In this document: piece after piece, positions 2,905 to 20,336 of the stretch
Numbering within the stretch: the first letter of the stretch is position 1
Layout: the number at the start of each line of letters is the position of its first letter
Assembly: GCA_040905475.1 (NCBI GenBank)
Contig: JBBDRM010000100.1
Coordinates: forward strand, 26,383 to 90,382
Reading direction: 5' to 3'
DNA from: Actinomycetota bacterium
Lineage (GTDB): Bacteria; Actinomycetota; AC-67
DNA: 64,000 nucleotides
The notes under the pieces: model-generated
What the model was told of the DNA's origin: nothing
The model's input: only the letters and a program-made list of their open reading frames with translations
The model's database searches: none
Translations under genes and position numbers: made by a program

Positions 2905-3590
2905 CACGGCGAACCCGACGGAACCAGCTCCTGGCCCAGCGCGGTCAGCTCGTCGAGCTCCGCCTCCAGCAGCTCGGCTTCGATCGTTCCCCCCGCGCCG
3001 ACGCCCTTGAACGACATCCGGTGGACGGGCGTCGGGCCGTGCGCCCGCAGCGCGGTCCAATGCTCGCGCGTGCCGTACCCCTTGTTCGACGCGAACCCGA
3101 ATTCCGGGAAACGGCGATGCAGCCGGCGCATCGTGCGATCACGCACGACCTTCGCGACGATCGAGGCCGCCGCGACCGACGCCGCGACACGGTCGCCCTT
3201 CCGGATCGAAAGCGTCGGCACCGGCATCCTCGGCACCGAGAAGCCGTCCGAGAGCGCGTAGTTCGGCCTCGGCTCCAAACGAGCGATCGCGGCGCGCAGT
3301 GCGCGGATGTTCGACTTGTGCAGCCCGCGACGGTCGATGATCGCCGGCGTCACGCGCACAAGCGTAAGCGCGACGGCCTGCGCCCGGATCTTCACGGCCA
3401 GGACGTCCCGCTGCTTGGGGGTTAGGAGCTTCGAGTCATTGAGGCCGGGGAGGTCGAAATCGTCGGGCAGGATCACGGCTCCGGCGACCAGCGGCCCGGC
3501 GAGGGCGCCGCGGCCGACCTCGTCGACCCCGGCGACCAGCGCGAACCCCTGATCGTGGAGCTCACGTTCGATGGCACCGTCCGGCCGCAT
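2904..3590 (-). CDS. rnhB: Ribonuclease HII
   Basis: The sequence LVAGVDEVGRGALAGPLVAGAVIL...DSKLLTPKQR...SDGF is present. The start was inferred at MRPDGAIERELHD. Confidence 0.9.
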   Translation of the reverse strand: MRPDGAIERELHDQGFALVAGVDEVGRGALAGPLVAGAVILPDDFDLPGLNDSKLLTPKQRDVLAVKIRAQAVALTLVRVTPAIIDRRGLHKSNIRALRAAIARLEPRPNYALSDGFSVPRMPVPTLSIRKGDRVAASVAAASIVAKVVRDRTMRRLHRRFPEFGFASNKGYGTREHWTALRAHGPTPVHRMSFKGVGAGGTIEAELLEAELDELTALGQELVPSGSP

Positions 3591-3663
3591 CGAGCTGAGG
3601 ATAACGCGGCCGGACGACGCCGGCGGGTCCCGCCGTCCGGTTCGGGTGCCCGGTCTGCTCCGC

Positions 3664-4458
3664 TCATGCAGCTCTGTCGTGGCGTTGCCGCCGTTTCCTG
3701 ACGCGAGCGGCGCCGAGGAAGACCACCGGGACGACAACCGCGACCGAACCCAACGCAGCCGCCTCGTACTTCGGGGTTCCGAGGATGCCGATGCGGCTCA
3801 ACGGCCATACCTTGACGAAGGCTTTACCGACGATGTCGGAGCGCTTGATCGGCCCGAGCCTGGTGCGGCTGTCTGCGGAGTTCGGCCGGTTGTCCCCCAT
3901 GACGAAATACGACCCCGCGGGAACCTTCGAAAGACCGAACGGCGACGTGTCCTTGTCCTCCGCCAGGTACGGCTCCTTCAAGGCGATCTTCGTACCGTCG
4001 GTCTTGGTGATCGTGACGACGCCGTCTTTCATCTCCACCGTCTCACCGGGCAGGCCGATGATGCGCTTGATGAAGTCGCGGTCCGACGGAGCCGACACGC
4101 CGAGCCCCTCGGTGAGCGTGTCGACGATCTTGCGCAACAAACCCCGATCGTCGGCCGTGGGGTCGCGTTCCGCCACGAAGACGATGACCTCACCCCGGCG
4201 TGGTTCGCGGAATCGATACACGAGCTTGTTGACGAGGACCCGGTCGCCGATCTCCAGCGTCGGCACCATCGATTCGGAGGGGATGAAGAAGGCCTGGATC
4301 AAGAAGGTCTTTATGAGCAGGGCCAAGCCGAACGCGATCAGGATGAGGACCGGGAGCTCCTTGAAGAACGACAGCGCGCTTCGCTTCTTCGGGGGCGGCC
4401 CGGCGGGTTTGTCCGGCCAGTCCGACTGAAGGGGGGAATCCTCGAGGGGCGGACGCAC
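3664..4458 (-). CDS. lepB: Signal peptidase I (copy 2, paralog)
   Basis: The sequence MRPPLEDSPLQSDWPDKPAG...IPSESMVPTL...KRIIGLPGETV...GDNRPNSADSR is about 65% identical to copy 1 by eye. Confidence 0.85.
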   Translation of the reverse strand: MRPPLEDSPLQSDWPDKPAGPPPKKRSALSFFKELPVLILIAFGLALLIKTFLIQAFFIPSESMVPTLEIGDRVLVNKLVYRFREPRRGEVIVFVAERDPTADDRGLLRKIVDTLTEGLGVSAPSDRDFIKRIIGLPGETVEMKDGVVTITKTDGTKIALKEPYLAEDKDTSPFGLSKVPAGSYFVMGDNRPNSADSRTRLGPIKRSDIVGKAFVKVWPLSRIGILGTPKYEAAALGSVAVVVPVVFLGAARVRKRRQRHDRAA

Positions 4459-4467
4459 GGGCGCGTC

Positions 4468-4959
4468 CTAGGCCTGCGCCGGAGTCTCGGTCTCGTCGGG
4501 TGCAGTCGCCTCGGTCGTTTCCTCGGCGGCCGCCTCCGGCTCTTCCGGCACCTCGGGCGCGGCAACTTCGACGGTCTCGGCCGTCACAACGGCCGCGATG
4601 CCCTCTTCGGGAACCGCAACACGCCGCTCCTTGATCTTGGCCTTTCGGCCGGTGAGCTCGCGCAGGTAGTAGAGCTTCGCGCGGCGCACCTTGCCGTGCT
4701 GGACGATCTCGAGCTTGGAGACCGTAGGCGCGTGGATGGGGAACGTCCGCTCGACGCCGACCCCGAAAGACATCTTTCGAACCGTGAACGACTCCCGGAG
4801 CCCACCGCCGCGCCGCGAGATCACGACACCCTGGAAGACCTGGATGCGTTCGCGACCGCCCTCGGAGACCTTGACGTGCACCTTGACGGTGTCGCCCGGC
4901 CGGAAGGCCGGGACGTCGGTACGCAGCCGCGACCGCTCGACGAGGTCGACCTTGTTCAC
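4468..4959 (-). CDS. rplS: 50S ribosomal protein L19 with an acidic Ala/Glu/Pro/Thr-rich C-terminal extension
   Basis: The sequence [53 protein letters not shown] is present. The GTG start at 4957-4959 is preceded by GGAGGAG. Confidence 0.9.
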
Positions 4960-5049
4960 GGCGCGCTCTCCTCCTGAGGTGGCCTGCTCGGCCGGATCGG
5001 CGAAAGGCCCATGGTACGGGCGGAGCACTTCCCCTGCAACGACGCCCAG

Positions 5050-5745
5050 CTAGGGCGCGATGTCGAGGTCCGGCCCGAGCAGATCCGGCCGCCGCCGTTT
5101 GGTCCGCTCGAGCGCTTCCCGCCTCCGCCAGGCCGCGATCTCGGCGTGGTCGCCCGACAGCAGCACGTCCGGCACGGCCATGCCGCGGAAGTCCGCCGGC
5201 CGCGTGTACTGGGGAAAGTCGAGGAGGCCGTCGGGGCCGAACGACTCCTGTTCGACCGAGGCCGCCTCCTTCACCACACCGGGCACCAGCCGCGTGACTG
5301 CCTCGACGACGAGCAGCGCCGCCGACTCGCCACCCGCCAGGACGTAGTCGCCGACGGACAGCTCATCGGTCGCGAGCCCTTCGGCGACCCGTTCGTCGAT
5401 CCCTTCGTACCGGCCGCACATCAAGATCAGATGCGGCGCAAGCGCGAGGTCACGCACAAGATCTTGGTCCAGCCGACGTCCGGCCGGCGTCAGCAAGACA
5501 CGGCGGGCCGTCTCCCATCCCTCGATCGCCTCGACCGCGGCGAACCACGGATCCGGCTTCATCACCATCCCCACCCCGCCGCCGTACGGCTCGTCGTCGA
5601 CGGTGCGATGCGGATCGGTCGTGTGCTCGCGGAGGTCGTGCAGGCGAACGTCGACCACACCGCGCTTCCTGGCTTTGCCGAGCAATGAGGCGTTCATGGG
5701 CCCGGTGAAGAACTCCGGGAAGATCGTCACCACGTCGATCCTCAT
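5050..5745 (-). CDS. trmD: tRNA (guanine37-N1)-methyltransferase
   Basis: The sequence MRIDVVTIFPEFFTGPMNASLLGKARKRGVVDVRLHDLR...YGGGVGMVMKPDPW is present. The track ORF is over-extended upstream. Confidence 0.9.
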   Translation of the reverse strand: MRIDVVTIFPEFFTGPMNASLLGKARKRGVVDVRLHDLREHTTDPHRTVDDEPYGGGVGMVMKPDPWFAAVEAIEGWETARRVLLTPAGRRLDQDLVRDLALAPHLILMCGRYEGIDERVAEGLATDELSVGDYVLAGGESAALLVVEAVTRLVPGVVKEAASVEQESFGPDGLLDFPQYTRPADFRGMAVPDVLLSGDHAEIAAWRRREALERTKRRRPDLLGPDLDIAP

Positions 5746-6146
5746 CAGGCGTCCATGATGAGCTGCGTGCAGGTGAAGATCGCGATCAGGCGCCCATCCT
5801 CTCGCGTCACCCGCGCCTCCCAGACGTGCGTCCGCTTCCCCTGATGTATCGGGAGGGCTTCCGCGATGATCCGCCCTTCCGACGCCGACGCGATGAGATT
5901 CGCTTTCAGCTCGACGGTTATGAAGGTCTTCCCCGGCTCGAGCGACGCCGAGCAGCCCTGGCCGCACGCGGTGTCGGCGAGCGACACGACGGCGCCCGCG
6001 TGCACGCCGTCGATGTGCGGACGCAGATGCTTCTCCTGGACCTCCATCTCGGCCCGGCAGTAGCCCGGCCGCCGCTCGACGATCTCCAGGCCGAGCAGGC
6101 CGGGGAATCGCCGCGCCCGCCGGGCGGCGAGCTCGTCGGAGCTCAT
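5745..6146 (-). CDS. PaaI/4HBT-type hotdog thioesterase
   Basis: This 133-aa protein has a hotdog fold pattern (HGGAVVSLADTACG...). It is inserted between rimM and trmD, with overlapping start and stop codons. Confidence 0.7.
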   Translation of the reverse strand: MSSDELAARRARRFPGLLGLEIVERRPGYCRAEMEVQEKHLRPHIDGVHAGAVVSLADTACGQGCSASLEPGKTFITVELKANLIASASEGRIIAEALPIHQGKRTHVWEARVTREDGRLIAIFTCTQLIMDA

Positions 6147-6661
6147 TCGAAAAGTCCCGGAATCACGTGGATCACGATCCTCCCCGACCCGAGGTCGACC
6201 GACCGGATGAACTCCTCCACCGCCGGGACCATGGCTTCACCATCTCCGGTGTCTATCACCCAGACGTCGTTCCCCGCTCGCTCGATCACCCGGTCCAACG
6301 TGCCGAGAACTTCTCCCTCCTCGTCGACCACCTCGAGCCCCCGGATCTGCCATTCGTAGTAGGTGCCTTCCGCGGGGGCGGCGACCTCGTCGGCCGGGAT
6401 CGACAGGAGCGCGCCGCGCATGCGCTCTGCCGCTCCGCGGTGGGGAACCTGTTTGAACGTCACGAGCAGCAGGCCGCGATCCCTGCGTGCCTTCCGCACC
6501 GTGAGCGGAGAGCGCTCCCCTTCGGGGTCACCGGCCTCGAGACTTGCTCCGGCGGCGAACCGGTCGGGGGCGTCGCTCAACACCTCGACGACGACTTCGC
6601 CGGTGGTCCCGTGGGGTTTGACGATCCTGCCGACCACGATCCGCTCGGGAGCGGAGCCCAC
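6143..6661 (-). CDS. rimM: 16S rRNA processing protein RimM
   Basis: The sequence VGRIVKPHGTTGEVVVEVLSD...PRB-like C-term is present. The GTG start is at VGSAPER after a GAGG RBS. The track ORF is artificially long. Confidence 0.85.
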   Translation of the reverse strand: MGSAPERIVVGRIVKPHGTTGEVVVEVLSDAPDRFAAGASLEAGDPEGERSPLTVRKARRDRGLLLVTFKQVPHRGAAERMRGALLSIPADEVAAPAEGTYYEWQIRGLEVVDEEGEVLGTLDRVIERAGNDVWVIDTGDGEAMVPAVEEFIRSVDLGSGRIVIHVIPGLFE

Positions 6662-6672
6662 TGGGGACCTCG

Positions 6673-6948
6673 CTACTCGACGATCTCGATGAGCACGTGG
6701 ACGCCGGCTTTCGCCGCTGCGGCCCGAGTCACCTGACGGATCGCGCGCGCCGTGCGCCCGCTGCGGCCGATCACGCGGCCCATGTCCTCGGGATTGACGC
6801 GCAGGCGGTAGACGGTCAGGTCGCCCTCGCCGGAGGAAGACGAAACCTCGACGTCGTCGGGATGCTCGACGATTGATTTGGCGAGATAGGTGAGCGTGGC
6901 CTCTACGAGGCCTTCGTCGCCTTCGTCGCCTCGAGGTGTTTCTTCCAT
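6673..6948 (-). CDS. KH-domain RNA-binding protein (YlqC/Rv2908c-like)
   Basis: The sequence LVEATLTYLAKSIVEHPDDVEV...VIGRSGRTARAIRQV is present. The start is uncertain and may lie downstream. Confidence 0.7.
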   Translation of the reverse strand: MEETPRGDEGDEGLVEATLTYLAKSIVEHPDDVEVSSSSGEGDLTVYRLRVNPEDMGRVIGRSGRTARAIRQVTRAAAAKAGVHVLIEIVE

Positions 6949-7184
6949 GTGCCCGTTGCCCGCAGCAAGGCGACGACGCTCGCGGACGGCTGGGCCCCTT
7001 TGGCCAGCCAGGCGAGCGCCTTCTCCTCGTCGATGCGGATCTCAGAGGGATCGGTGAGGGGGTTGTAGGTGCCGAGTTGCTGGACGGGGCGCCCGTCGCG
7101 GGGAGCGCGCTGATCTGCGACGACGACGCGATAGAAGGGCTGCTTGCGCTTGCCCGTCCGCATGAGTCTGATCCGCACCGACAT
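6903..7184 (-). CDS. rpsP: 30S ribosomal protein S16
   Basis: The sequence MSVRIRLMRTGKRKQPFYRVVVADQRAPRDGR is present. Confidence 0.9.
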   Translation of the reverse strand: MSVRIRLMRTGKRKQPFYRVVVADQRAPRDGRPVQQLGTYNPLTDPSEIRIDEEKALAWLAKGAQPSASVVALLRATGTWKKHLEATKATKAS

Positions 7185-7241
7185 GTGGAGGCACAGGCTA
7201 CCAGGCTGACCGATGCTCGTCGCACCGGGCCGGGGCGCCGC

Positions 7242-8657
7242 TCAGCGCCGCTTCTTCTTCTTGCGCTTGGCGTGCTGCTTGGGGCGGTGGGGGCGTTGCT
7301 TCGGTTTGGGACGTCCCCCGGCGCCCGGCACGCGCGGCATCGTCATCCCCGCCGGCATCCCCGGCATGCCGCCGCCGCCGGCCATCGCTTTCATCATCTT
7401 CTTGGCCTGCTCGAACTGACGCAGCAAACCGTTCACGTCGCCGGTCGTCATCCCGCAGCCGCGCGCGATCCGCGAGCGCCGCGAGCCGCCGATGATCGAG
7501 GGGTCACGCCGTTCCCCCGGCGTCATGGAGCAGATGATGGCCTCGGTCCGCGCCATGTCCTTCTCGTCGAGCTCCATCCCCTTGAGCTGCGAGCCGAGTC
7601 CCGGGATCATCCCGAGGATGTTCGTGAGCGGCCCCATCTTCTTCAGCTGGCGCATCTGGTCTAGGAAGTCCTCGAGGGTGAAGGTCGCCTCGAGCATCTT
7701 CTTTTCCATCTCGCGCGCTTGATCTTCCTCGTAGACCTCCTCGGCCTTCTCGATCAGCGTGAGCACGTCGCCCATGCCGAGGATCCGCGACGCGATCCGG
7801 TCGGGATGGAACGGCTCGAACGCATCGAGCTTCTCGCCGGTGGAAGCGAACTTCACCGGCCGGCCCGACACGTGCGCGATCGACAACGCGGCGCCGCCGC
7901 GCGCGTCGCCGTCGAGCTTCGACAGGACGATCCCCGTGAAGTCGACGTGCTCGAGGAACGAGGTCGCCACGTTCACCGCGTCCTGCCCGGTCATCGCGTC
8001 GACGACGAGCAGGGTCTCCGTCGGCTTCACGCGATCGCGGATCGCGGCGGCCTCGGCCATCATCTCCTCGTCGACGTGGAGCCGGCCGGCGGTGTCGACG
8101 ATCACGACATCGCGCCCGAGCCGCTCCGCCTCTTTGACGCCCTCCGCCGCGACCTCGATCGGCGTCATACCCTCACGCGCGACCACCGGGACTCCCGCCT
8201 GCTCCCCGAGCAGGACGAGCTGCTGCACGGCGGCCGGGCGGCGAAGGTCGCACGCGACGAGCAGCGGCTGTTTCCCTTTGGCTTTCAGCCACGTCGCGAG
8301 CTTCCCCGCGGCCGTCGTCTTCCCCGAGCCTTGCAGGCCGGCGAGCATGATCACCGTCGGGGGCTTTGGGGCGAAACGCAGCGGCTTCGAGGAGCCGCCG
8401 AGGATCCCCACGAGCTCCTCGTTCACGATCTTGATGACCTGTTGCGCCGGGGTGAGCGCCTTGAGCACTTCCTCGCCGACGGCACGCTCTCGGACGCGCG
8501 TGACGAATGCCCGCGCGACCTCCAGATGGACGTCCGCCTCCAAGAGGGCCATGCGGACCTCACGCAGGGCCTCGTCGACCTGCTCTTCAGAGAGCCGGCC
8601 ACGCGAGCGCAGCCGCTTGAAAACGGCCTCGAGGCGATCGGACAGGGTGTCGAACAT
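7242..8657 (-). CDS. ffh: Signal recognition particle protein Ffh
   Basis: The sequence MFDTLSDRLEAVFKRLRSRGRLSEEQVDEALREVRMALLEADV...GLQGSGKTTAAGKLA is present, with a Met-rich M domain and a basic tail. Confidence 0.9.
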   Translation of the reverse strand: MFDTLSDRLEAVFKRLRSRGRLSEEQVDEALREVRMALLEADVHLEVARAFVTRVRERAVGEEVLKALTPAQQVIKIVNEELVGILGGSSKPLRFAPKPPTVIMLAGLQGSGKTTAAGKLATWLKAKGKQPLLVACDLRRPAAVQQLVLLGEQAGVPVVAREGMTPIEVAAEGVKEAERLGRDVVIVDTAGRLHVDEEMMAEAAAIRDRVKPTETLLVVDAMTGQDAVNVATSFLEHVDFTGIVLSKLDGDARGGAALSIAHVSGRPVKFASTGEKLDAFEPFHPDRIASRILGMGDVLTLIEKAEEVYEEDQAREMEKKMLEATFTLEDFLDQMRQLKKMGPLTNILGMIPGLGSQLKGMELDEKDMARTEAIICSMTPGERRDPSIIGGSRRSRIARGCGMTTGDVNGLLRQFEQAKKMMKAMAGGGGMPGMPAGMTMPRVPGAGGRPKPKQRPHRPKQHAKRKKKKRR

Positions 8658-8791: not shown

Positions 8792-10627
8792 TTGGGCGAG
8801 ATGCCTGGGGACATCGCCGGCCGGGAGATCGCGCGCCTTCGCGGGATCGAGCGCAAGCTCGTCTGGATCCGCTGGTTCGGGGTCGTCTTCGGCGTGTTCC
8901 AGGTCTGGCAGCTCGCCGGGCCGCAGACGCCCGATTACGTCGTCCCGATCTCGTATCAGACCATCGTCGTGCTCGGGATCGGGAACCTGATCATCGGCGC
9001 ACTCTCCGGACGCGCGAACACCGTCCGGGCCCTCAAGCGGATCGGGTACGCGGCCTTCGCGCTCGACATCGCGCTCGTGTTCGCGAACATCTGGCTCGGT
9101 TCCTACGATCGCAATTCAACCTCTTGGACGCTGGCATACGTCCTCCCGCTCGAAGGCGCGATCCGGTACCAGATGCGAGGTGCGGCCTTCAGCATCGCCG
9201 CGTTCTCGATCTCCGAGCTCGCGCGTGAGATCTACCGGCTCGGATTGTTCGACGACCTGCACTTCGAGATCTCTTCCGTCACCTACCGGGTGGGACTCTT
9301 CTCGATGATCGCCCTCATCGCCGGGATCATGGCCCGCAACCTCGAGCACGAGCGTAACGCAGCGGAATCACGCGCCGACGAGCTCGAGCAGATGGCCCGG
9401 CGCGAAGCAGCTTCCCGCGGCGAGATCCAAGCGTTCCACGACGTCGTTCTCGCCGGGATCGGCTCGGGCACGCTCGAGCAGACCCTCTCCGACGTCGCCG
9501 CCGCGATGGGTCGGGCGTTCGATTGGGAAGCGTTCGCGATCGGCTTGATCAACGAGGAGAACGACGACGTGCGGCTGCTGGGCTCCTACGGCTTTCCGGA
9601 GAAGGTGATCGACCAGGTCATGCCCGCCGGGCAAGGCGTCGTGGGCCGCTGCATCGCGACGGGTGAACCGCAGCTCGTTCCGGACACCGGCACCGATCCC
9701 GACTACGTGCCGTGGAACCCGCTCGTCCGCTCGGAGATGACCGCCCCGATCCGTTACGAGGGCAAGATCATCGGCGTCGTCGACGTCGAGGCTCGCGAAC
9801 CGGGGCGGTTCACACCCGCGGACGTCGAAGGCCTCGACCGGCTCGCCACGCAGATCGGCCTCGTCGTCTCCAACGCGCGATCGCTCGCGTCACAGCGGGC
9901 TATGGTCGAGCGTCTCCAGGAACTCGACACGATGAAGAGCGACTTCGTCGCGGTCACCTCGCACGAGCTCCGCACCCCGTTGACGGCGGTCCAAGGATTC
10001 ATCCGCACGCTCCGCCGCCCGGACGTGCGCCTTTCCCAGGGTGAGATGGAGGAGTTCCTCGCGATCGTGGACCGGCAGGTCGAACGCCTTTCCCGGCTCG
10101 TCGAGGAGCTCCTGTTGACCGCCCGCATAGACGCCGGAGCGATCGACCTGCTCATGGACTCGGTCGACGTCGCCGAGGTGCTGGAGGAAACGCTCGTCGA
10201 GCTGGGCGACGGGCGCGCTCGCGTGCAACTCGCGATCGATCCGTCGCTGCCGCGGATCGCGACCGACGCACAACGACTCGGGCAGATCGCGCGGAACCTG
10301 ATCGAGAACGCACTGAAGTTCTCCGGCGACGACGAACCCGTGCGGGTTACGGTCGTGCGCGACGGCTCCGTCCTGCTCCTCGAGGTAGCCGATCGGGGCC
10401 CGGGTATCCCCGAAGATCAGCTTCCCCAGATCTTCGAGCGCTTCCATCAGCTTGGGGGATCCCTTCGACGACGCGGTCAGGGCCTGGGGCTCGGCCTCTA
10501 CATCGTGCGCAACCTCGTCGACGCGCTCAACGGCACGGTGCGCGTGCGATCGACGGTGGGCGAGGGAACGACCTTCTCGGTAGGGATCCCGCTCGTGCCG
10601 GCGGCGGTTCGCTCCTCGAGCGCGTAA
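8792..10627 (+). CDS. Membrane sensor histidine kinase (multi-TM N-terminal domain + GAF + HisKA + HATPase_c)
   Basis: There are 5-6 predicted TM helices in the first 200 aa. A GAF-like region is present. The H-box is SHELRTPLTAVQGF, and the G-boxes are GLGLGLYIV...GTVRVRSTVGEGTTF. Confidence 0.85.
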   Translation: MGEMPGDIAGREIARLRGIERKLVWIRWFGVVFGVFQVWQLAGPQTPDYVVPISYQTIVVLGIGNLIIGALSGRANTVRALKRIGYAAFALDIALVFANIWLGSYDRNSTSWTLAYVLPLEGAIRYQMRGAAFSIAAFSISELAREIYRLGLFDDLHFEISSVTYRVGLFSMIALIAGIMARNLEHERNAAESRADELEQMARREAASRGEIQAFHDVVLAGIGSGTLEQTLSDVAAAMGRAFDWEAFAIGLINEENDDVRLLGSYGFPEKVIDQVMPAGQGVVGRCIATGEPQLVPDTGTDPDYVPWNPLVRSEMTAPIRYEGKIIGVVDVEAREPGRFTPADVEGLDRLATQIGLVVSNARSLASQRAMVERLQELDTMKSDFVAVTSHELRTPLTAVQGFIRTLRRPDVRLSQGEMEEFLAIVDRQVERLSRLVEELLLTARIDAGAIDLLMDSVDVAEVLEETLVELGDGRARVQLAIDPSLPRIATDAQRLGQIARNLIENALKFSGDDEPVRVTVVRDGSVLLLEVADRGPGIPEDQLPQIFERFHQLGGSLRRRGQGLGLGLYIVRNLVDALNGTVRVRSTVGEGTTFSVGIPLVPAAVRSSSA

Positions 10628-10633
10628 CTTGAT

Positions 10634-11260
10634 TCAGCTCGCCGAGCGCGTCCTGCGCGGCGGCGCGGCGTGAACCTGTTCGACCTCAGGCTTGTCGGCG
10701 AACATCCTCTCGGCGCGGATCACCGAGTCCGCGATTTCGCGCATCTTTCGGTTCTCGTCCTGGCTCGCCTTCTGGAGCTTGCGGAACGCGTCGGGCTCGG
10801 ACAGCCCGAGCCGGTCCATCAGGATGCCCTTGGCACGTTCGACGAGCTTCCGCGTCTCGAGCTGATCTCGAAGGTCGTTCGCCTCGCCCCGTGCTTTCGC
10901 GAGATCGGCCGCGCGTGCGACCGCGGCGCGCACCTGGGCGTGGAACAGCGTCCCGTCGACGGGGAACGGCACGAACGAAGACGCGCCGTGCTCGACGGAT
11001 GGACCGATCGCGACATCGGAAAGCCGATCGGTGACGACGACGACGGGGCGATCGCCCGAGCAGATGTCATACAGGAGCTTCGGATCCTCGCCGGCGACCA
11101 CCACGAAACCGTCCACCGAGCGGGCGTTCGCCTGGTCGGCGAGCGTCGCCCAGTCCGAGCCTTCCGCGACCACGTCGACATCGAGTGATTCGAGGACGCG
11201 TCGCAACGAACCGTGTGAGAACGTGCCGTCCTCTACCAGAACGACGCGGAGACGAGCCAT
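10634..11260 (-). CDS. ANTAR-domain response regulator (REC-like + ANTAR RNA-binding antiterminator)
   Basis: The REC-like N-terminus reads MARLRVVLVED. The C-terminal sequence LETRKLVERAKGILMDRLGLSEPDAFRKLQKASQDENRKMREIA is an ANTAR signature. It is convergent with the kinase. Confidence 0.8.
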   Translation of the reverse strand: MARLRVVLVEDGTFSHGSLRRVLESLDVDVVAEGSDWATLADQANARSVDGFVVVAGEDPKLLYDICSGDRPVVVVTDRLSDVAIGPSVEHGASSFVPFPVDGTLFHAQVRAAVARAADLAKARGEANDLRDQLETRKLVERAKGILMDRLGLSEPDAFRKLQKASQDENRKMREIADSVIRAERMFADKPEVEQVHAAPPRRTRSAS

Positions 11261-12621: not shown

Positions 12622-15600
12622 TTAGGCGCCGACCGGCTCGTTCTCCTCGAGCCGTTCGCTGAGGACCCGAGTCACCCCGTCGCCGCCCATGGAGATGCCG
12701 TAAAGGGCGTCGGCGATCTCCATCGTGCGCTTCTGGTGCGTGACGATCAGGATCTGTGAAGCGTTCTTGAACTCCTTGGCGAGCTCGAGGAAGCGGTGCA
12801 GGTTAACGTCGTCGAGCGCGGCCTCTACCTCGTCCAAGAGATAGAAGGGAGACGGGCGGGCACGGAAGATGGACGAAAGCAGCGCGATCGCAGTCAGCGC
12901 GCGCTCCCCACCGGATAGGAGAGAGATCCGCTTCACGCGCTTTCCGCCGGGCCGCGCTTCGATCTCGACCCCGCTCTCGAGCAAGTCGTCGGGCTGGGTC
13001 AGCGTCAAGCGCCCCTCCCCACCGGGGAACAGACGGAGGAAGACCTCCTCGAACTGCCGGGAGACATCCGAGAACGCCCCGCCGAAGATCTCCACGATCT
13101 TGCGATCGACTTCGCCCACGACCGAAACCAGGTCGCGCCGGCTCTTGCGCAGGTCCTCGACCTGCTCGCTGAGGAAGGCGTGACGATCGACCATCCCTTG
13201 GTACTGCTCCATCGCGATGGGGTTGACCCGCCCGAGTAGTCCCAGCTTGCGGTCCAGGGTGGCTGCGCGGCGGCGGAGCTCCTCGAGCGCCTCGCCGGTT
13301 GGGGGTTCGCCCACGCGTTGCATCGCTTCGTCGGGCGCCAGATCCTGATCGGCGCGAAGGCGCTCGACGAGCGACGAGATGCGATGCGATCGCTCGGCGC
13401 GCGCGAGATCGCTGCGATGGGCGGTCTCGCGGAGCTCCTCAAGGCGCGACTCCGCTTGGCGGCGATAGCGGCGGACGCTTCCGAGCTCCTCTTCGAGGCC
13501 GGCGCGTTCGGACTCGCGACGCTGTCGCTCAGCACGCGCCTCGGAGAGCCAGCCGTCCATCCGCGACTCGACGGTAGCCGCTGCGCGCGCGATCTCTTGC
13601 GAGCGCAGCGCGGCGCTCGCGCGCTCCGCACGGCTCGCTTCCCACGTCTCCATCGCGACGCGGACGCGTGCCGCCCTCGCCTCGAGCTCCTCGAGGGCGC
13701 TCCGCGCTGCGCGCTCACGTTCTCGCATTCCACCGAGACGCAGCGCGTTCTCAGCGGCACGGCGCTCCATCGTGGCGAGGGCGGCCGCGTCGAAGGTGTG
13801 ATCGACGCCCATCGCTCTTCCGAGCTGCGCCTCGACGGCGCCAAGCTTCTCGGAGTCCACCGCCAAGCGCTCTTCGACCTCGACCGAACGTCCGGCGAGC
13901 ACCGCCTGCTCGCGATCGGCCGCGTGCTCCTCGCGCTCGAGATGCGCCAGCCGCTCGACGGCGCCGGTGATGAGCGCGTCGAGCTCGTTCATCTGGCCGG
14001 TGAGTGCGTTGACCTCACCGATGCTGGCCTCCGCCAGCGCTCTGGCGCTCCACGCTTCCTTCGTAGCGCCCTCGAGGTCGGACGAAACAACCTGCAACCG
14101 CTCGTCGATCGATGCGACGTCGACGGCGAGATCACCGCGCGGTTCGGCTTCGGCCCCGCCGGCCACGAGGTCGCTCGCGACCCGATCGCCTTCGCGCGTC
14201 ACGATCACGAGGTCCCGGTGTGCGCGGGCGAGCGCGAGCGCGTCGTCCAGGGTGTCGACGAGACCCACCGAGGACAGGATCGCAACCAGCGCCGGCGGGA
14301 TGTCGCGACCGGCTGTCGGCTTGGCCGCCTCGATCGCGCTGCGAACGCCCGGCGGCAGCGCTCTCGCGATCTGACGTCCGGTCACGATGAATGCAGCCCT
14401 GCTCCCCATAGCCTTGAGCCGGCCGATCGCCGCGGCCGCGTCGTCGAGGGATCGGGCGAGCAGCGCCCCCGTGTACGGCTCGAGCGCCGCAGCAAGCGCG
14501 CGTTCGAACCCGGGCGCCGGCCGGACCAGCTCGGCGATCCGGCCGAGCAGTCCGGGGAACCGCTCGCGGTCGATGAGGTCGGCGGCGCCTGCAGTTCCCG
14601 CCCGCTCCAGCTCCGAACGCAAGATCGCGCGCCGCGTCTCGAGCTTCTCGACATCGCGCTCGAGTTCGCGAACGCGATCGTCTGCCGTGGCGGCCGAGAC
14701 CTCACGCTCCCGCGCCGATATCTCGAGCTCCTCGAGGCTTCGGCCGAGACTCGTCTCGCGCGTGTCGAGCACCTCGATCTCTTCCTTGACCGCCGAGATC
14801 TCGGTCGCCCGCCGGCGGGACGCTTCGGTGAGCGCCGCCTGTTGGTCGGCGATGTGACGGCGTTCGTCCTCCGCGGCTTCGACGGCGGCGCGGAGCGCCG
14901 CCCGCTCGCCGTGGAGGTGCACGACGGCCTCGCGCGCCCGTGCGGCTTCTTCGCGCGCACCCGCCGCGCGAGCCCACTCCTCCTCGGCGGTGCGCGCATC
15001 GCGTTCGATCGATGCGCGCTCGGAGGCCGCTTCCTCGAGCGCGCGACGAGCGGCGGCGATCATCTCCTCGCCCGGCGCTTCTCCTTCCGGGGCGCGGTCG
15101 GCGAGGTCGGAGAGGTGCCGCCCTCGCTCTTCTGCCAGCCTGGCGAGCCCGACGAACCGCTCTCGCAGCGAGGCGAGGCGATACTCGGCGCCGAGGGCCT
15201 CTTGCGCGTCCCGGCTCGCGCGAGCGCTGCCGTCCTCGATCTCCTCACCGCGGACCTCGAGCGCGCTCACCTGCGCGGACAGCGCGTCGAGCTCCTCGGA
15301 GAGCCGGCGTTCGGCGTCGACGTCGGCCTCACTGACGACGGCGGAGTAGTCGGCCGCCCAGACGGCGAGGCGTACCTCCTTCAGCTCGCCTTCGATCTCC
15401 GATGCGCGCTTCGCGACCTCGGCCTGCCGCTCGAGGGGCCGGATCTGACGGCGAAGTTCCGAGATGAGATCACCGATGCGCTCGATGTCGGCGTCCACGC
15501 GCTCGAGCTTGCGTATCGCACGCTCCTTGCGACGTCGATGCTTGAGGATGCCGGCAGCCTCTTCGATGTACGCGCGGCGGTCCTCGGGCCGTGCGTTCAG

Positions 15601-16157: not shown

Positions 16158-16337
16158 CTACGCCAGCGCCTTGACCTCTTCGCGGGTCTCCGCGATGGCG
16201 CGGAGAGCGATGATCTCTGCCTCGGACGACTCAAGTGCCTTCTCGAGCTCTGCGACTCGAGCCTTCAGATCGGCGATCTGCTTCAGCAATACATAGGCGC
16301 GTGGTTCCCCCAGATATCCGAACAGCGCTTTCGACAT
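16158..16337 (-). CDS. Hypothetical 59-aa coiled-coil protein (MSKALFGYLGEPRAYVLLKQIADLKARVAELEKALESSEAEIIALRAIAETREEVKALA)
   Basis: ATG at 16335-16337 follows a GAAGGGGG RBS. It has heptad-like charge periodicity and its own terminator downstream. It is preceded by a 260-nt unusually AT-rich leader. The track ORF (116 aa) is over-extended. Confidence 0.35.
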   Translation of the reverse strand: MSKALFGYLGEPRAYVLLKQIADLKARVAELEKALESSEAEIIALRAIAETREEVKALA

Positions 16338-16600
16338 ACCCGTGCCCCCTTCGTCAACAGGGGGGCGGATCCCGCCTGCTGGGCCGCCCAACTCCTCGAC
16401 GCGTTGCCGCCGAGGCCGTTCTTCTCTTGCCTCTTCCCTGGTCGTGGCTGGATCTTGATCCGACAAGGCTTGGGACAAGGCTCGGGAGGGACCTTGGTCC
16501 CTCTTCACGAGAGCACTTTAACGTAGCGTTCGGCTCCTGAAAAGGGGTTGAAGGCGATCCGCTCAGAAAATGTCTGGAAACTCTTAGGAAACTGCGGGCG

Positions 16601-16887: not shown

Positions 16888-18078
16888 TCAGTAACGCGGG
16901 ATGGTCGGATCGATCTGCGCTGCGTAGGACTCGATCCCGCCGGCGAGATGCTTCGTGTTCGTCAGGCCGACCTGGTGCAGGAACTTGAGCACTTCCGCCG
17001 ACCGTGCACCTACCTTGCAGTAGACGAGGACGTTCCCGGATTGGGGGATCTCACTGATGCGTGCCGGCACGTCGTTCATCGGGATGAGCTGTGCTCCGGG
17101 GATCCGCGCGATCTCCCACTCGTGGGGCTCTCGGACGTCGATGAGCACGATCTCGTCTCCCCGGTCGCGCATCTGCGCGAGTTCGCGCGGGGTGACCGAC
17201 AGCTGCGAAGCGAACTGGGCGATCTCGTCGGTGACGCCGCAGAACGCCTCGTAGTCGATGAGCTCCTTGACCGTCGGGTTCTTCCCACACACCGGGCACT
17301 CGGGATCCTTGCGAACGCGAAGCTCCTTGAACTTGAGTTCGAGGGCGTCGTAGATGAGCATCCGGCCGATCATCGGGTCGCCGATCCCGGTGATCAGCTT
17401 CACGGCCTCGGTTGTCTGCAGCGATCCGATCGTGCCGCAGAGCATCCCGAGGACGCCGCCCTCCGCGCACGACGGAACCATCCCAGGCGGCGGGGGCTCG
17501 GGGAACAAGCACCGGTAGCAGGGCCCGTGCTCCGCCCAGAAAACGGAGAGCTGGCCGTCGAAGCGGAAGATCGAGCCCCATACGTACGGCTTGCCGAGCA
17601 GGACGCACGCGTCGTTCACGAGGTAGCGCGTCGGGAAGTTGTCGGATCCGTCGACGATGAGGTCGTACGGTGCGAACAGCTCCATCGCGTTCTCACTCGA
17701 GACCATCGTCTCGTGCTTCACCACGTTCACGAAGGGGTTGATCTCGCCGATCCGGTCGGCGGCCGAATCGAGTTTCGGCCGGCCAACGTCGCTCGTCCCG
17801 TGGATGACCTGACGCTGGAGGTTGGTGTCGTCGACGACGTCGAAGTCCACGATCCCGAGCGTGCCCACGCCCGCCGCCGCCAGGTACATGGCGACCGGGG
17901 AGCCGAGCCCGCCGGCGCCGATGCAGAGGACCTTGGCGTTCTTCAGCCGCTTCTGCCCGGCCATCGCGACGTCGGGGATGATGAGATGCCGCGAATAACG
18001 TCGGATCTCCTGGAACGAGAGCTCATCGGCGGGCTCGACCAAGGGTGGAGGCCGCAGTATCTCGCCGTCCCGCGTCAT
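16888..18078 (-). CDS. moeZ: MoeB/ThiF-type adenylyltransferase fused to a C-terminal rhodanese domain (MoeZ-like sulfur-carrier activating enzyme)
   Basis: The sequence YSRHLIIPDVAMAGQKRLKNAKVLCIGAGGLGSPVAMYLAAAGVGTLGIVDFDVVDDTNLQRQ...CAEGGVLG is present. The rhodanese Cys loop is YCKVGARS. Confidence 0.85.
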   Translation of the reverse strand: MTRDGEILRPPPLVEPADELSFQEIRRYSRHLIIPDVAMAGQKRLKNAKVLCIGAGGLGSPVAMYLAAAGVGTLGIVDFDVVDDTNLQRQVIHGTSDVGRPKLDSAADRIGEINPFVNVVKHETMVSSENAMELFAPYDLIVDGSDNFPTRYLVNDACVLLGKPYVWGSIFRFDGQLSVFWAEHGPCYRCLFPEPPPPGMVPSCAEGGVLGMLCGTIGSLQTTEAVKLITGIGDPMIGRMLIYDALELKFKELRVRKDPECPVCGKNPTVKELIDYEAFCGVTDEIAQFASQLSVTPRELAQMRDRGDEIVLIDVREPHEWEIARIPGAQLIPMNDVPARISEIPQSGNVLVYCKVGARSAEVLKFLHQVGLTNTKHLAGGIESYAAQIDPTIPRY

Positions 18079-18235
18079 AAATCTGCTTCCTTCGCTCGCG
18101 CCGATCGAGTGATACGCCCCTCTGAACGCTCCGGATGAGCCCGACATTCCTGGTCAGCGGGTCGCCGGAGCGACTCGGGAGCGTCCGCGCTGGATACTAG
18201 CGCGCGCCAACCGACAGAAGCACCGGCGCGGAACC

Positions 18236-19480
18236 GTGGCGCAACTGGGGCGAAAACGACCCGATGCTTGCCGGGGAAGGAGCGGGTATGAATGGGGTCG
18301 AACGGAATTGATGATGATGTTAGGGACTTCCAGGTTGACGAAGGCACATGCGGCACTCATAGCGATCTTGTTGGCCGCGGCGACCGCGGCTCTCGTCGTC
18401 GTCGGCCCCGGATCCACGCCGGCGAGCTCGAGACCGCAAACAGCAAGTCAACCTCCGGCGCGCTCGCCGGTCGTCCCGGACGCCCCGGCGGTGGTTCCGC
18501 CGGCACCCGCCAAGGCTCCGGGGAAGGCGAGCGGCGCCGGCTCGGCGCGCCTCGTGGCCACCGACGAGAGCAGTGTGGCGGCCGCGTCGACGACGACTTC
18601 GTCGTCCTCGTCGGGTAGTTCCTCCTTCGCCCAGAAGTACCCGGCCCAGGCGAACGCGTCGGTGGATCCCTCGGTCCCGGCCACCAACTATTGGGCGCTT
18701 CTCATCGGGATCAACGACTACGCGGGCTCGACGCGAGACAACGTCGGGTCGTATCAGGATGCTCGGGATCTGAGGATGCATCTGTTGTCGCTCGGGTGGC
18801 ACTCCGACCACATCGTGCTCATCGGGAACCGTGACGCGACCGCTTCGCGCATCCTCCAGGGGATCCGATGGCTGGCCTCGAAGACGAACTCGTCTTCCGT
18901 CGTGGTGTTCCACTATTCGGGGCACGAGAAGCCGCTCAAGACCTCTGCCGATGGCGACAACGAGAGCCGGGATGTCGCGCTGTGGGTCGCGGACAACAAG
19001 CTGATCGTCGATGGGGTGCTCGGGCGCGAGATGGGCAAGGTCGCCGCCGCGAAGATGTGGATCGATCTCGCCGTATGCCGTGCCGGAGGGTTCAGCGACG
19101 TCGGGATGGTAAAGGCGGGGCGGGTTCTCACCTTCTCCTCGCCAGAGAGCGAGCTGTCATACGAGGATCCGGGCCTCCATCACTCAGTCTTCGGCTGGTA
19201 CGTGATCATGGAAGGGATGCGCCAGCACCTCGGCGATTTGAACGGCGACGGCGTCGTCACGGTCGAGGAGGCGTTCGTTTACGGCAGACCGCTTGTCACC
19301 GATCGCACGGGTGGTCGGCAGCACCCGAAGATCTCCGACAAGCTCAGCGGGGAGCTGAACCTGACCCCGCCGGAGCCGGCGCCCCCACCCGAACAGCCTT
19401 CGCCGGACGACGGCTCCGGTGGCGGATGCGGGATCGTCATCTTCTGCACCGAGGGCTACCGCTCGGAGTACTGGGCCTGA
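18236..19480 (+). CDS. Membrane-anchored caspase-like (peptidase C14/orthocaspase) protein with a dockerin/EF-hand-like Ca loop and Pro-rich tail
   Basis: A TM helix (AHAALIAILLAAATAALVVV) is followed by a Pro/Ala/Ser linker. The C14 p20-like core has ALLIGINDYAG, FHYSGHE (His) and IDLAVCRAGGF (Cys). The Ca loop is DLNGDGVVTVEE. The start is ambiguous: GTG at 18236 or the ATG cluster near 18311. Confidence 0.65.
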   Translation: MAQLGRKRPDACRGRSGYEWGRTELMMMLGTSRLTKAHAALIAILLAAATAALVVVGPGSTPASSRPQTASQPPARSPVVPDAPAVVPPAPAKAPGKASGAGSARLVATDESSVAAASTTTSSSSSGSSSFAQKYPAQANASVDPSVPATNYWALLIGINDYAGSTRDNVGSYQDARDLRMHLLSLGWHSDHIVLIGNRDATASRILQGIRWLASKTNSSSVVVFHYSGHEKPLKTSADGDNESRDVALWVADNKLIVDGVLGREMGKVAAAKMWIDLAVCRAGGFSDVGMVKAGRVLTFSSPESELSYEDPGLHHSVFGWYVIMEGMRQHLGDLNGDGVVTVEEAFVYGRPLVTDRTGGRQHPKISDKLSGELNLTPPEPAPPPEQPSPDDGSGGGCGIVIFCTEGYRSEYWA

Positions 19481-19502
19481 GCCGCTCCTCCCCGGATCGG
19501 CG

Positions 19503-20336
19503 TCACACCTGGCATTGCGGGCAGTAATACGTGCTTCGGTTCGACCAGCGCGCTCGTTCGATCGGGGTGCGACAGCGCCTGCAGGGTTGGCCTTCGCGGC
19601 CGTAGACCTTCAGGTGGTCCTGCATCTCTCCCGTCTTACCGTAGAGATCCTTGTAGGTCTCGTCCTCGAGCGTGACGCCGCGGAACCGCACGCCCTCCTG
19701 CAGCACCTCTTGCATCGCGCGATACAGCCGCCGCACCTCTTGCGCGCTGAGCGAATCGGAGGGCCGGTCGTGTCGCAACCCCGCGGCCCAAAGGATCTCG
19801 TCCGAGTAGATGTTGCCGAGGCCCGAGATGAACTTCTGGTCCATGAGGAGCGCCTTGAGCTTCGTTCTGCGGCTGTTGAGCGACTCCGAGAAGTGCTGCC
19901 ACGTGAACGAGTCCTCGAGCGGGTCGATCGCGATGTGCTGCAACTCCTTGACGCCCGAGATCTGATCGCCGGTCGTGACGAAGAGCTCGCCGAACTGTCG
20001 CATGTCGATGAACCGCAACTCGCCGCCGACCTGGAACCTGATAACGGCGTGGGTGTGCTTCTCCAGCGCCTTTCGGCCGGTCGACCGCTCGACGCGACCG
20101 CTCATCCCAAGATGCATCACGAGGACGTCGCCAGAATCGAGCGACAGCAAGACGTACTTCCCACGGCGGTCGACCTTGGTGATCTTGCGACCCACCAGGG
20201 GTGCGGTGAACTCCTTCTTCGTCTTATGACGACGGATGATCCGCGGAAGACGGACGTCGACGTCTTTGATCTTCTTGCCGACGACATCGCGTTCCAGATC
20301 CTTGCGAACGACCTCGACCTCGGGCAGCTCCGGCAC
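19503..20336 (-). CDS. fpg: Formamidopyrimidine-DNA glycosylase
   Basis: The sequence MPELPEVEVVRKDLER is followed by the H2TH region and the C-terminal zinc finger CPQCQ. Confidence 0.9.
   Translation of the reverse strand: MPELPEVEVVRKDLERDVVGKKIKDVDVRLPRIIRRHKTKKEFTAPLVGRKITKVDRRGKYVLLSLDSGDVLVMHLGMSGRVERSTGRKALEKHTHAVIRFQVGGELRFIDMRQFGELFVTTGDQISGVKELQHIAIDPLEDSFTWQHFSESLNSRRTKLKALLMDQKFISGLGNIYSDEILWAAGLRHDRPSDSLSAQEVRRLYRAMQEVLQEGVRFRGVTLEDETYKDLYGKTGEMQDHLKVYGREGQPCRRCRTPIERARWSNRSTYYCPQCQV

Follow-up and report, generated by a model that had tools for sequence, protein, structure and literature searches.

Among prokaryotic homologues of caspases, the combination of an N-terminal helix with a metacaspase domain was reported in 46 of 671 sequences by Asplund-Samuelsson et al. 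in 2012, who also discussed extracellular action (PMC3501461), and EF-hand motifs were later listed among the accessory features of orthocaspases (Klemencic et al. 2019; PMC6426788). MaOC1 of Microcystis aeruginosa was the only orthocaspase characterised by 2017 (PMC5756287). The gene considered here lies in a 64,000-nucleotide stretch (the window) of contig JBBDRM010000100.1 from an Actinomycetota bacterium (assembly GCA_040905475.1), where a 414-amino-acid (aa) open reading frame (ORF) with a GTG start occupies positions 18236..19480 of the forward strand, between moeZ and fpg. The encoded caspase-like protein is probably a catalytically competent Cys endopeptidase of clan CD, family C14, orthocaspase/metacaspase-like in type and working outside the cytoplasm.

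Family assignment and active site

The initial annotation had described a transmembrane (TM) segment, a Pro/Ala/Ser-rich linker, a Pro-rich tail and a set of short motifs, all of which were found at verified coordinates. With residues numbered from the GTG codon, as is done throughout, the motifs ALLIGINDY, HYSGHE and DLAVCRAGG lie at aa 154-162, 226-231 and 277-285, respectively, and DLNGDGVVTVEE lies at aa 334-345. The proposed membership of Peptidase_C14 was borne out by a match to the Pfam family PF00656 at 45.1 bits (gathering score, 21.4), in which aa 153-368 align with profile positions 3-225 (223 of the 233 positions covered). PF00656 is carried by all 120 homologues listed, and homologues are already named 'caspase family protein' by NCBI.

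The catalytic domain has the caspase-hemoglobinase fold of family C14. In the structure list, Arabidopsis metacaspase-4 (AtMC4) is the top entry with a score of 25.0 (217 residues, 2.3 Å), followed by metacaspase-9 (23.9), legumain (21.9), MALT1 and the Geobacter protein GSU0716 (21.2 each), caspase-9 (20.4) and caspase-8 (20.3). The sequence alignment pairs His230 with AtMC4 His86 and Cys281 with AtMC4 Cys139 or, in the entry of the C139A mutant, with Ala, and alignments of the family profile to yeast and Candida metacaspase-1 (E = 2e-10) give the same His/Cys pairing with better E-values. Both residues, already proposed as the catalytic pair in the initial annotation, are invariant in all 66 aligned homologues. 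By its hidden Markov model match, fold and dyad, the protein is a member of family C14. None of the outcomes that the initial annotation had named as refuting its reading was observed, the dyad being judged from the sequence alignments.

A metacaspase-type p10 region was not recovered. None of the profile-to-PDB alignments with metacaspases runs appreciably past the catalytic Cys, the one that extends most ending at profile position 247 of 362, and the C-terminal half of the protein had no metacaspase match in the PDB sequence search. The Arg/Lys specificity of metacaspases has been attributed to two S1-pocket Asp residues, Asp95 and Asp211 of TbMCA2 (PMC6426788). The first is retained as Asp175, and the position of the second is taken by Ala279, where at least 90% of the family have Ala. 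Because no p10-type match was found and the second S1 Asp is lost, the protein is not a metacaspase sensu stricto (types I-III). It fits the operational definition of an orthocaspase, having a bacterial context (smc, acyP, moeZ, fpg, rnc), an intact His/Cys dyad and no metacaspase-type p10.

The presence of GHE in place of GHG at the catalytic His had initially been read as a possible sign of altered catalysis. Among the 66 family members, GHE occurs in 62 and GHQ in four, and GHG was found in none (0/66). When 1.84 billion cluster representatives were searched exhaustively with the profile, 19,927 matched at E ≤ 1e-3 (~20,000 clusters at 50% identity), 3,597 at 1e-10 and 178 at 1e-30, and counts for the wider clade were taken from the 121 full-length sequences among the top 150. 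In these 121 representatives, the residue after the catalytic His is V in 45, G in 23, T in 14, A in 13, E in 10 and M in 6. As just 23 of the 121 have Gly at this position, His-Glu/Val-Cys is treated as a subfamily trait and is no ground for exclusion from C14.

The residue after the His varies together with that after the Cys. As judged from 50%-identity representatives, Cys-Arg accompanies 13 of 14 cases of His-Glu, and His-Glu likewise accompanies 13 of 14 cases of Cys-Arg; canonical His-Gly pairs with Cys-(Tyr/Phe/His) and an Asp at Cys-2 (15 cases); the non-Gly forms carry Ala, Ser or Gly at Cys-2; and His-Val/Thr/Ala pairs with Cys-Glu/Tyr across the wider clade. Since the Glu covaries with the Arg that follows the catalytic Cys, GHE, one of many non-Gly variants, would not by itself signal impaired catalysis, contrary to the earlier suggestion. 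The strands that carry the His and the Cys are neighbours in the caspase fold, and hence Glu231 and Arg282 could plausibly form a salt bridge beside the dyad.

The S1 pocket has probably been reshaped, with Glu310 and Asp311, two invariant acidic residues, as the candidate replacements for the lost Asp; from the position of the caspase L3 loop, both are candidate S1/S3 pocket residues. The P1 preference is uncertain, and a basic residue (Arg/Lys) would be the best guess because, with Asp175 kept and Ala279 replacing the other Asp, the region is kept acidic by Glu231, Glu310 and Asp311. The covarying remodelling of the active site and a C-terminal Cys motif, described below, are distinctive points of modest interest.

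Probable export, the putative calcium loop and competing explanations

Strong hydrophobicity is confined to one segment, aa 38-57 (Kyte-Doolittle value of 2.64 across 19 residues), and residues 6-28 of the AlphaFold2 (AF2) model are helical. Arg and Lys precede this hydrophobic helix of ~20 residues, which is followed by GPGS and not by an AxA site. An N-terminal hydrophobic helix is present in essentially all family members. The stalk that follows comprises ~70 residues, with a predicted local distance difference test score (pLDDT) below 50 at model residues 30-75; it varies in sequence and length among homologues and is absent from short paralogues of ~300 aa, in which a typical signal peptide, with ANA, VHA or GRA at its end, directly precedes the conserved domain. 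Exactly three Cys residues, the catalytic Cys and an invariant C-terminal pair, are found in 62 of the 66 family members, and exported actinobacterial proteins with disulfides usually have an even number of non-catalytic Cys. Given the N-terminal helix, the disordered stalk, the signal peptides of the short paralogues and the Cys pattern, the catalytic domain is most likely extracytoplasmic, the long form being tethered by a signal-anchor. The helix, stalk and Cys pattern thus lend indirect but consistent support to the membrane anchor with an outward-facing protease domain that had been predicted.

The dockerin/EF-hand-like loop of the initial annotation stands in its EF-hand part. Residues D1, N3, D5, G6, V8, T9 and E12 of the loop fit the EF-hand consensus, and its D, N, G and EE residues are invariant or nearly so in the 66-homologue alignment. 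In the AF2 model, the two final helices of the caspase fold (model residues 291-302 and 316-330) flank the loop, giving a helix-loop-helix. When the C-terminal half was compared with PDB sequences, nothing matched but genuine Ca2+ loops of dockerins and of an Entamoeba calcium-binding protein (EhCaBP), with E-values of 0.02-2, all below significance, as expected given that a single loop of 12 residues is too short for statistical support. The loop may reasonably be inferred to bind Ca2+. A dockerin was rejected, as there is one loop embedded in the C14 fold and not two tandem segments of ~22 residues, and no dockerin Pfam match was obtained.

At the C-terminus, a Pro-rich spacer leads to CGIVIFC, with both Cys residues invariant in 66 of 66 sequences, and a Cys-(4-5 hydrophobic residues)-Cys motif recurs within the last 40 residues of 22 of the 121 wider-clade representatives. 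AF2 confidence is low in this tail (51-55). The tail might form a disulfide loop, act as an autoinhibitory strand or serve as a sorting tag; the NCBIfam search gave no above-cutoff match for the protein, and no known C-terminal sorting signal was matched.

An N-terminal hydrophobic segment is present in 96 and an EF-type loop in 46 of the 121 wider-clade representatives. GHE, the EF-type loop and export are thus traits of a large clade and nothing unusual. The view that an exported, Ca-loop-bearing C14 protein is a rarity is accordingly withdrawn, the combination of a TM helix with C14 having been known since 2012.

In the mechanism proposed here, the N-terminal helix would persist as an uncleaved signal-anchor in N-in/C-out (type II) orientation, and the Pro/Ala/Ser stalk of ~70 residues would keep the catalytic domain off the membrane and within the cell envelope, where His230 and Cys281 would act as the catalytic dyad. 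The EF-type loop Asp334-Glu345 sits between the final two helices, in that half of the fold which makes up one wall of the substrate cleft, and Ca2+ bound there may stabilise the active conformation; because Ca2+ is plentiful outside, the enzyme would become competent only after export. A Cys398-Cys404 disulfide would probably also form after export. The most likely role would be the trimming or maturation of secreted or envelope proteins, probably after basic residues.

Several points weigh against an exported, Ca2+-responsive endopeptidase. Where clan CD typically, though not by definition, has His-Gly and Ala-Cys blocks, this protein has His-Glu and Val-Cys, and it lacks the Asp at Cys-2, so that activity and specificity could differ from those of the characterised enzymes. 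On the loop, Pfam EF-hand_5 reaches E = 0.21 and 11.6 bits, below its threshold of 25.9, and the characterised orthocaspase MaOC1 is Ca2+-independent (PMC5756287). With housekeeping genes on the other strand as its neighbours, the gene has a context that is uninformative on substrates. Finally, the N-terminal helix might be cleaved off as a signal peptide, leaving the enzyme soluble.

This last point can be extended to a secreted soluble protease whose helix is removed by signal peptidase and whose Pro/Ala/Ser region is a pro-segment or a wall-spanning linker. The signal peptides of the short paralogues do look cleavable, and the 2012 survey cautions that N-terminal TM predictions may be signal peptides (PMC3501461); the hydrophobic core of ~20 residues running into GPGS without an AxA site, and the long stalk expected of a tethered enzyme, make release in soluble form unlikely, though it deserves some weight. 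Also unlikely is a broader proposal, that the family and its wider clade are an as yet uncharacterised subfamily of extracytoplasmic C14 enzymes with a function of their own, in which Glu231-Arg282 reshapes S1 towards a new specificity or a transpeptidase-like activity, the EF-hand serves as an 'outside-only' Ca2+ latch, and the C-terminal C-(hydrophobic)4-5-C peptide is an autoinhibitory or sorting element. The traits behind it are the export signals, the non-Gly residue after the His and the loss of the Cys-2 Asp, together with the EF-type loop and the Pro-rich, Cys-bracketed tail that many members have. The remodelled active site could also belong to a non-hydrolytic or differently specific clan-CD enzyme, either a transpeptidase or ligase of envelope proteins (cf. 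glycosylphosphatidylinositol (GPI) transamidase, asparaginyl ligases and PorU) or a protease with a non-basic P1. All clan-CD enzymes match structurally and metacaspases score highest among them, no acceptor or substrate gene is linked, and Asp175 is kept as in Arg/Lys-specific enzymes, all of which renders this distinctly improbable.

A pseudo-enzyme, that is, a binding or scaffold protein with the fold and no cleavage activity, would account for the absence of GHG and of one S1 Asp, and pseudo-orthocaspases are common in bacteria (PMC6426788). The known pseudo-variants, however, exchange the His/Cys dyad itself (for Tyr/Ser), whereas here both residues are invariant in 66 of 66 sequences and in nearly all of the 121 wider representatives. 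Moreover, the caspase oxyanion hole is built from backbone amides, and Gly to Glu need not abolish it; loss of activity is regarded as very improbable. An intracellular effector caspase of cell death or anti-phage defence (cf. CHAT/SAVED, EACC1-associated and NACHT-linked proteins) is suggested by a match to the PADLOC 'caspase' model (aa 124-205, E = 8e-14) and by a weak match to the NCBIfam model caspase_w_EACC1 (NF047832; 24.3 bits against a cutoff of 140, aa 153-230 only). Both matches are limited to the first ~80 residues of the domain (for PADLOC, profile positions 2-82 of 453). The genes nearby include no sensor, NTPase or partner, moeZ, fpg, rnc and acyP being on the other strand; the export signal and the Cys pattern favour a location outside. 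With domain-level matches that are only partial, no partner genes and housekeeping neighbours in every locus, a defence-system caspase was rejected, and an intracellular effector of any such kind is scarcely credible.

The gene and the moeZ-fpg slot

The single ORF between moeZ and fpg that the initial annotation had delimited is real, although its start at 18236 is probably wrong. The database protein P0001, 100% identical to the caspase-like protein, is 387 aa long, all homologues start near the ATG triplet at 18311-18319 (as MMM, MM or M), and the codons before the triplet are conserved in no homologue. Given the length of P0001 and the starts of the homologues, the GTG appears to be merely the longest possible start, and the first 25-27 codons are probably not translated. 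A weak terminator-like hairpin at 18275-18260 (- strand), inside the 5' extension and upstream of moeZ, is probably not meaningful (1 site against 0.7 expected by chance).

The gene has at least 247 homologues, with E-values down to 1e-254, and the ratio of nonsynonymous to synonymous substitution rates (dN/dS) is 0.26-0.38 against four orthologues, with the fast-evolving linker counted in. It is under purifying selection, and by these measures is no chance ORF. Its guanine-plus-cytosine (GC) content is indistinguishable from that of the flanks. A search of the window with the protein (tblastn) found no second copy, a scan of 18000-19700 found no sigma-70 promoter sites, and neither tRNA genes nor Rfam families at the gathering threshold were found in the whole window (1-64000). 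The features of the gene and of its surroundings are collected in Table 1.

Table 1. Features of the C14 gene, its flanking genes and related loci. Coordinates refer to the window unless a locus (L) is named.
Feature	Position	Strand	Basis
5' extension, before the ATG triplet; probably not coding (leader or intergenic DNA)	18236..18310	+	Not conserved; length of P0001; starts of homologues
Probable true coding sequence of the C14 protein, 387-389 aa plus stop	18311..19480	+	ATG triplet; PF00656; homologues; dN/dS
N-terminal hydrophobic helix, aa 38-57, HAALIAILLAAATAALVVVG; putative signal-anchor/TM, basic residues N-terminal to it	18347..18406	+	Hydropathy
Pro/Ala/Ser-rich disordered stalk, aa 58-127	18407..18616	+	pLDDT; poor conservation
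Catalytic domain with caspase-hemoglobinase fold, aa 128-377	18617..19366	+	Pfam match aa 153-368 = 18692-19339
Asp175, invariant; equivalent to metacaspase S1-pocket Asp (TbMCA2 Asp95, 'GCxND' motif)	18758..18760	+	AtMC4 alignment; column D148 of alignment A1
Catalytic His230 followed by Glu231 (GHE instead of GHG)	18923..18928	+	Alignment to AtMC4 His86; His invariant
Ala279-Val280-Cys281-Arg282, with catalytic Cys281; Ala279 at the position of TbMCA2 Asp211	19070..19081	+	AtMC4 Cys139 alignment; Cys and Arg invariant
Ser-Tyr-Glu-Asp, aa 308-311, loop after strand beta5	19157..19168	+	Invariant columns E283, D284
EF-hand-type 12-residue loop DLNGDGVVTVEE, aa 334-345, between two C-terminal domain helices	19235..19270	+	Consensus by direct reading
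C-terminal tail, aa 378-414: Pro-rich spacer, then C398-GIVIF-C404	19367..19477	+	Cys conservation
moeZ	16888-18147	-	NCBIfam MoeZ 607.9 bits (just under the 647-bit curated cutoff); Pfam ThiF and Rhodanese above threshold
fpg	19503-20336	-	fpg 304 bits
Tandem caspase duplicates	L007:8908-9975 and 10001-10930		
Tandem caspase duplicates	L010:2668-3741 and 3750-4898		
Tandem caspase duplicates	L020:~3487-5375		
~600-aa slot protein, two copies	L022:10902-12707 and 12742-14523	Same as fpg	
~600-aa slot protein	L045:10922-12724	Same as fpg	
~600-aa slot protein	L019 from ~10221	Same as fpg	
~600-aa slot protein	L018 from ~2962	Same as fpg	

The gene order around the locus is smc, a 59-aa ORF, acyP, moeZ, the caspase gene on the opposite strand, fpg, rnc, rpmF, yceD and, further on, coaD, rsmD and recG. 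This block, with the caspase gene between moeZ and fpg, is kept in every orthologous locus recovered, down to ~50% caspase identity. For a survey of the slot, loci were anchored on Fpg in GTDB species genomes and their genes then mapped; all of the genomes compared are metagenome-assembled genomes (MAGs) of uncultured 'Actinomycetota bacterium' from soil and groundwater. The slot is filled by the caspase gene in L001-L012, L015 and L020, in tandem duplicate in L007, L010 and L020. In L013, L016, L017 and L023, moeZ directly adjoins fpg with gaps of 38-118 bp, and in L018, L019, L022 (two copies) and L045 the slot holds an unrelated exported protein of ~600 aa. The latter has an N-terminal hydrophobic segment, matches no Pfam family at E ≤ 0.01, has no homologue in the window and may be an older occupant of the slot. 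In more distant genomes of 'uncultured Actinomycetes', moeZ is absent and fpg lies a few hundred bp from acyP. In L014, the Fpg of which groups with those of caspase-bearing genomes, no caspase, moeZ or 600-aa protein was detectable in the stretch of ~1.6 kb that lies downstream of fpg (5448-7103).

The caspase gene had been regarded as an insertion between moeZ and fpg, and the four empty junctions show that these genes are indeed adjacent in some related genomes; it is not a recent insertion, the gene being syntenic across the whole lineage. Caspase identities of 78, 65, 63 and 59% correspond to Fpg identities of 94, 91, 83 and 80%, respectively, and this parallel fall is consistent with vertical descent. 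In a neighbour-joining tree of Fpg, which as a single-gene tree with no support values is tentative, the caspase-bearing genomes form one clade with the empty L013 nested inside, and the genomes with the 600-aa protein form a sister clade and an outgroup, with the empty L016 and L017 nested among them. In the simplest reading, this is a variable slot for genes of exported proteins, in which the caspase gene was gained once, early, and the empty junctions are later losses. A recent horizontal insertion was rejected, since the gene resembles its flanks in GC content, is syntenic and diverges in step with Fpg.

Further observations concern individual loci. In L007, a stalk-bearing long copy comes first and a copy of ~300 aa second; the latter lacks the stalk and has a signal peptide that looks cleavable, which suggests an anchored-plus-secreted pair. 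The slot of L008 additionally contains genes for an S-adenosylmethionine-dependent methyltransferase and a phospholipase D-family (PLDc_2) protein (6004-6735 and 6743-7966) between the caspase gene and fpg, and these are further evidence that accessory genes accumulate at the slot. The 59-aa ORF between smc and acyP, at 16158-16337 (- strand) inside a longer ORF (16158-16508), is conserved and encodes a predicted coiled coil (MSKALFGYLGEPRAY...); its counterparts are 59-60 aa long in L001, L003, L005, L007 and L008 and 110 aa in L010, with no Pfam family. L013 (JACQXY010000002.1) is labelled 'Acidobacteria bacterium', yet its gene order, coaD-rnc-fpg-moeZ-acyP-smc, is that of the Actinomycetota MAGs, to which its Fpg, Rnc and MoeZ are 79-81% and its other genes 58-71% identical; the bin is probably misclassified.

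Comparison with known systems

Prokaryotic caspase homologues are abundant, yet their discussion has centred mostly on intracellular cell death. The gene described here is a clear example of an exported branch, stably inherited in uncultured Actinomycetota of soil and groundwater, and could reasonably serve for studying the role of extracytoplasmic bacterial caspase homologues and their possible gating by Ca2+. It overturns no current view. An annotation for the family already exists, and its architecture was described in 2012.

The closest structural relatives, the type II metacaspases-4 and -9 of Arabidopsis (PDB 6W8S/6W8R and 8A53), are ~20% identical to the protein. Unlike them, it is without the long p20-p10 linker and has no p10 match at the sequence level, it has His-Glu for His-Gly, Ala for the second S1 Asp and an EF-type loop for the metacaspase Ca2+ sites, and it would be exported and membrane-anchored. 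Legumain and GPI transamidase (clan CD, family C13) are 13-15% identical and Asn-specific, and the query has no C13 Pfam match. The identity to GSU0716 of Geobacter sulfurreducens (PDB 3BIJ), a bacterial caspase-like protein that is itself uncharacterised, is 17%.

The overall architecture is shared with the 'N-terminal TM helix + metacaspase domain' class (PMC3501461), whereas that survey, made on finished genomes from 2011, does not describe the uncultured-Actinomycetota family, its stalk, EF-type loop and His-Glu/Cys-Arg pair, or the C-terminal Cys motif. MaOC1 is likewise a prokaryotic C14 protein with a His/Cys dyad and no metacaspase-type p10 (PMC5756287). It differs in being cytoplasmic, Arg-specific, Ca2+-independent and activated by autoprocessing, whereas the protein encoded between moeZ and fpg is predicted to be exported, carries an EF-type loop and has lost one S1 Asp.

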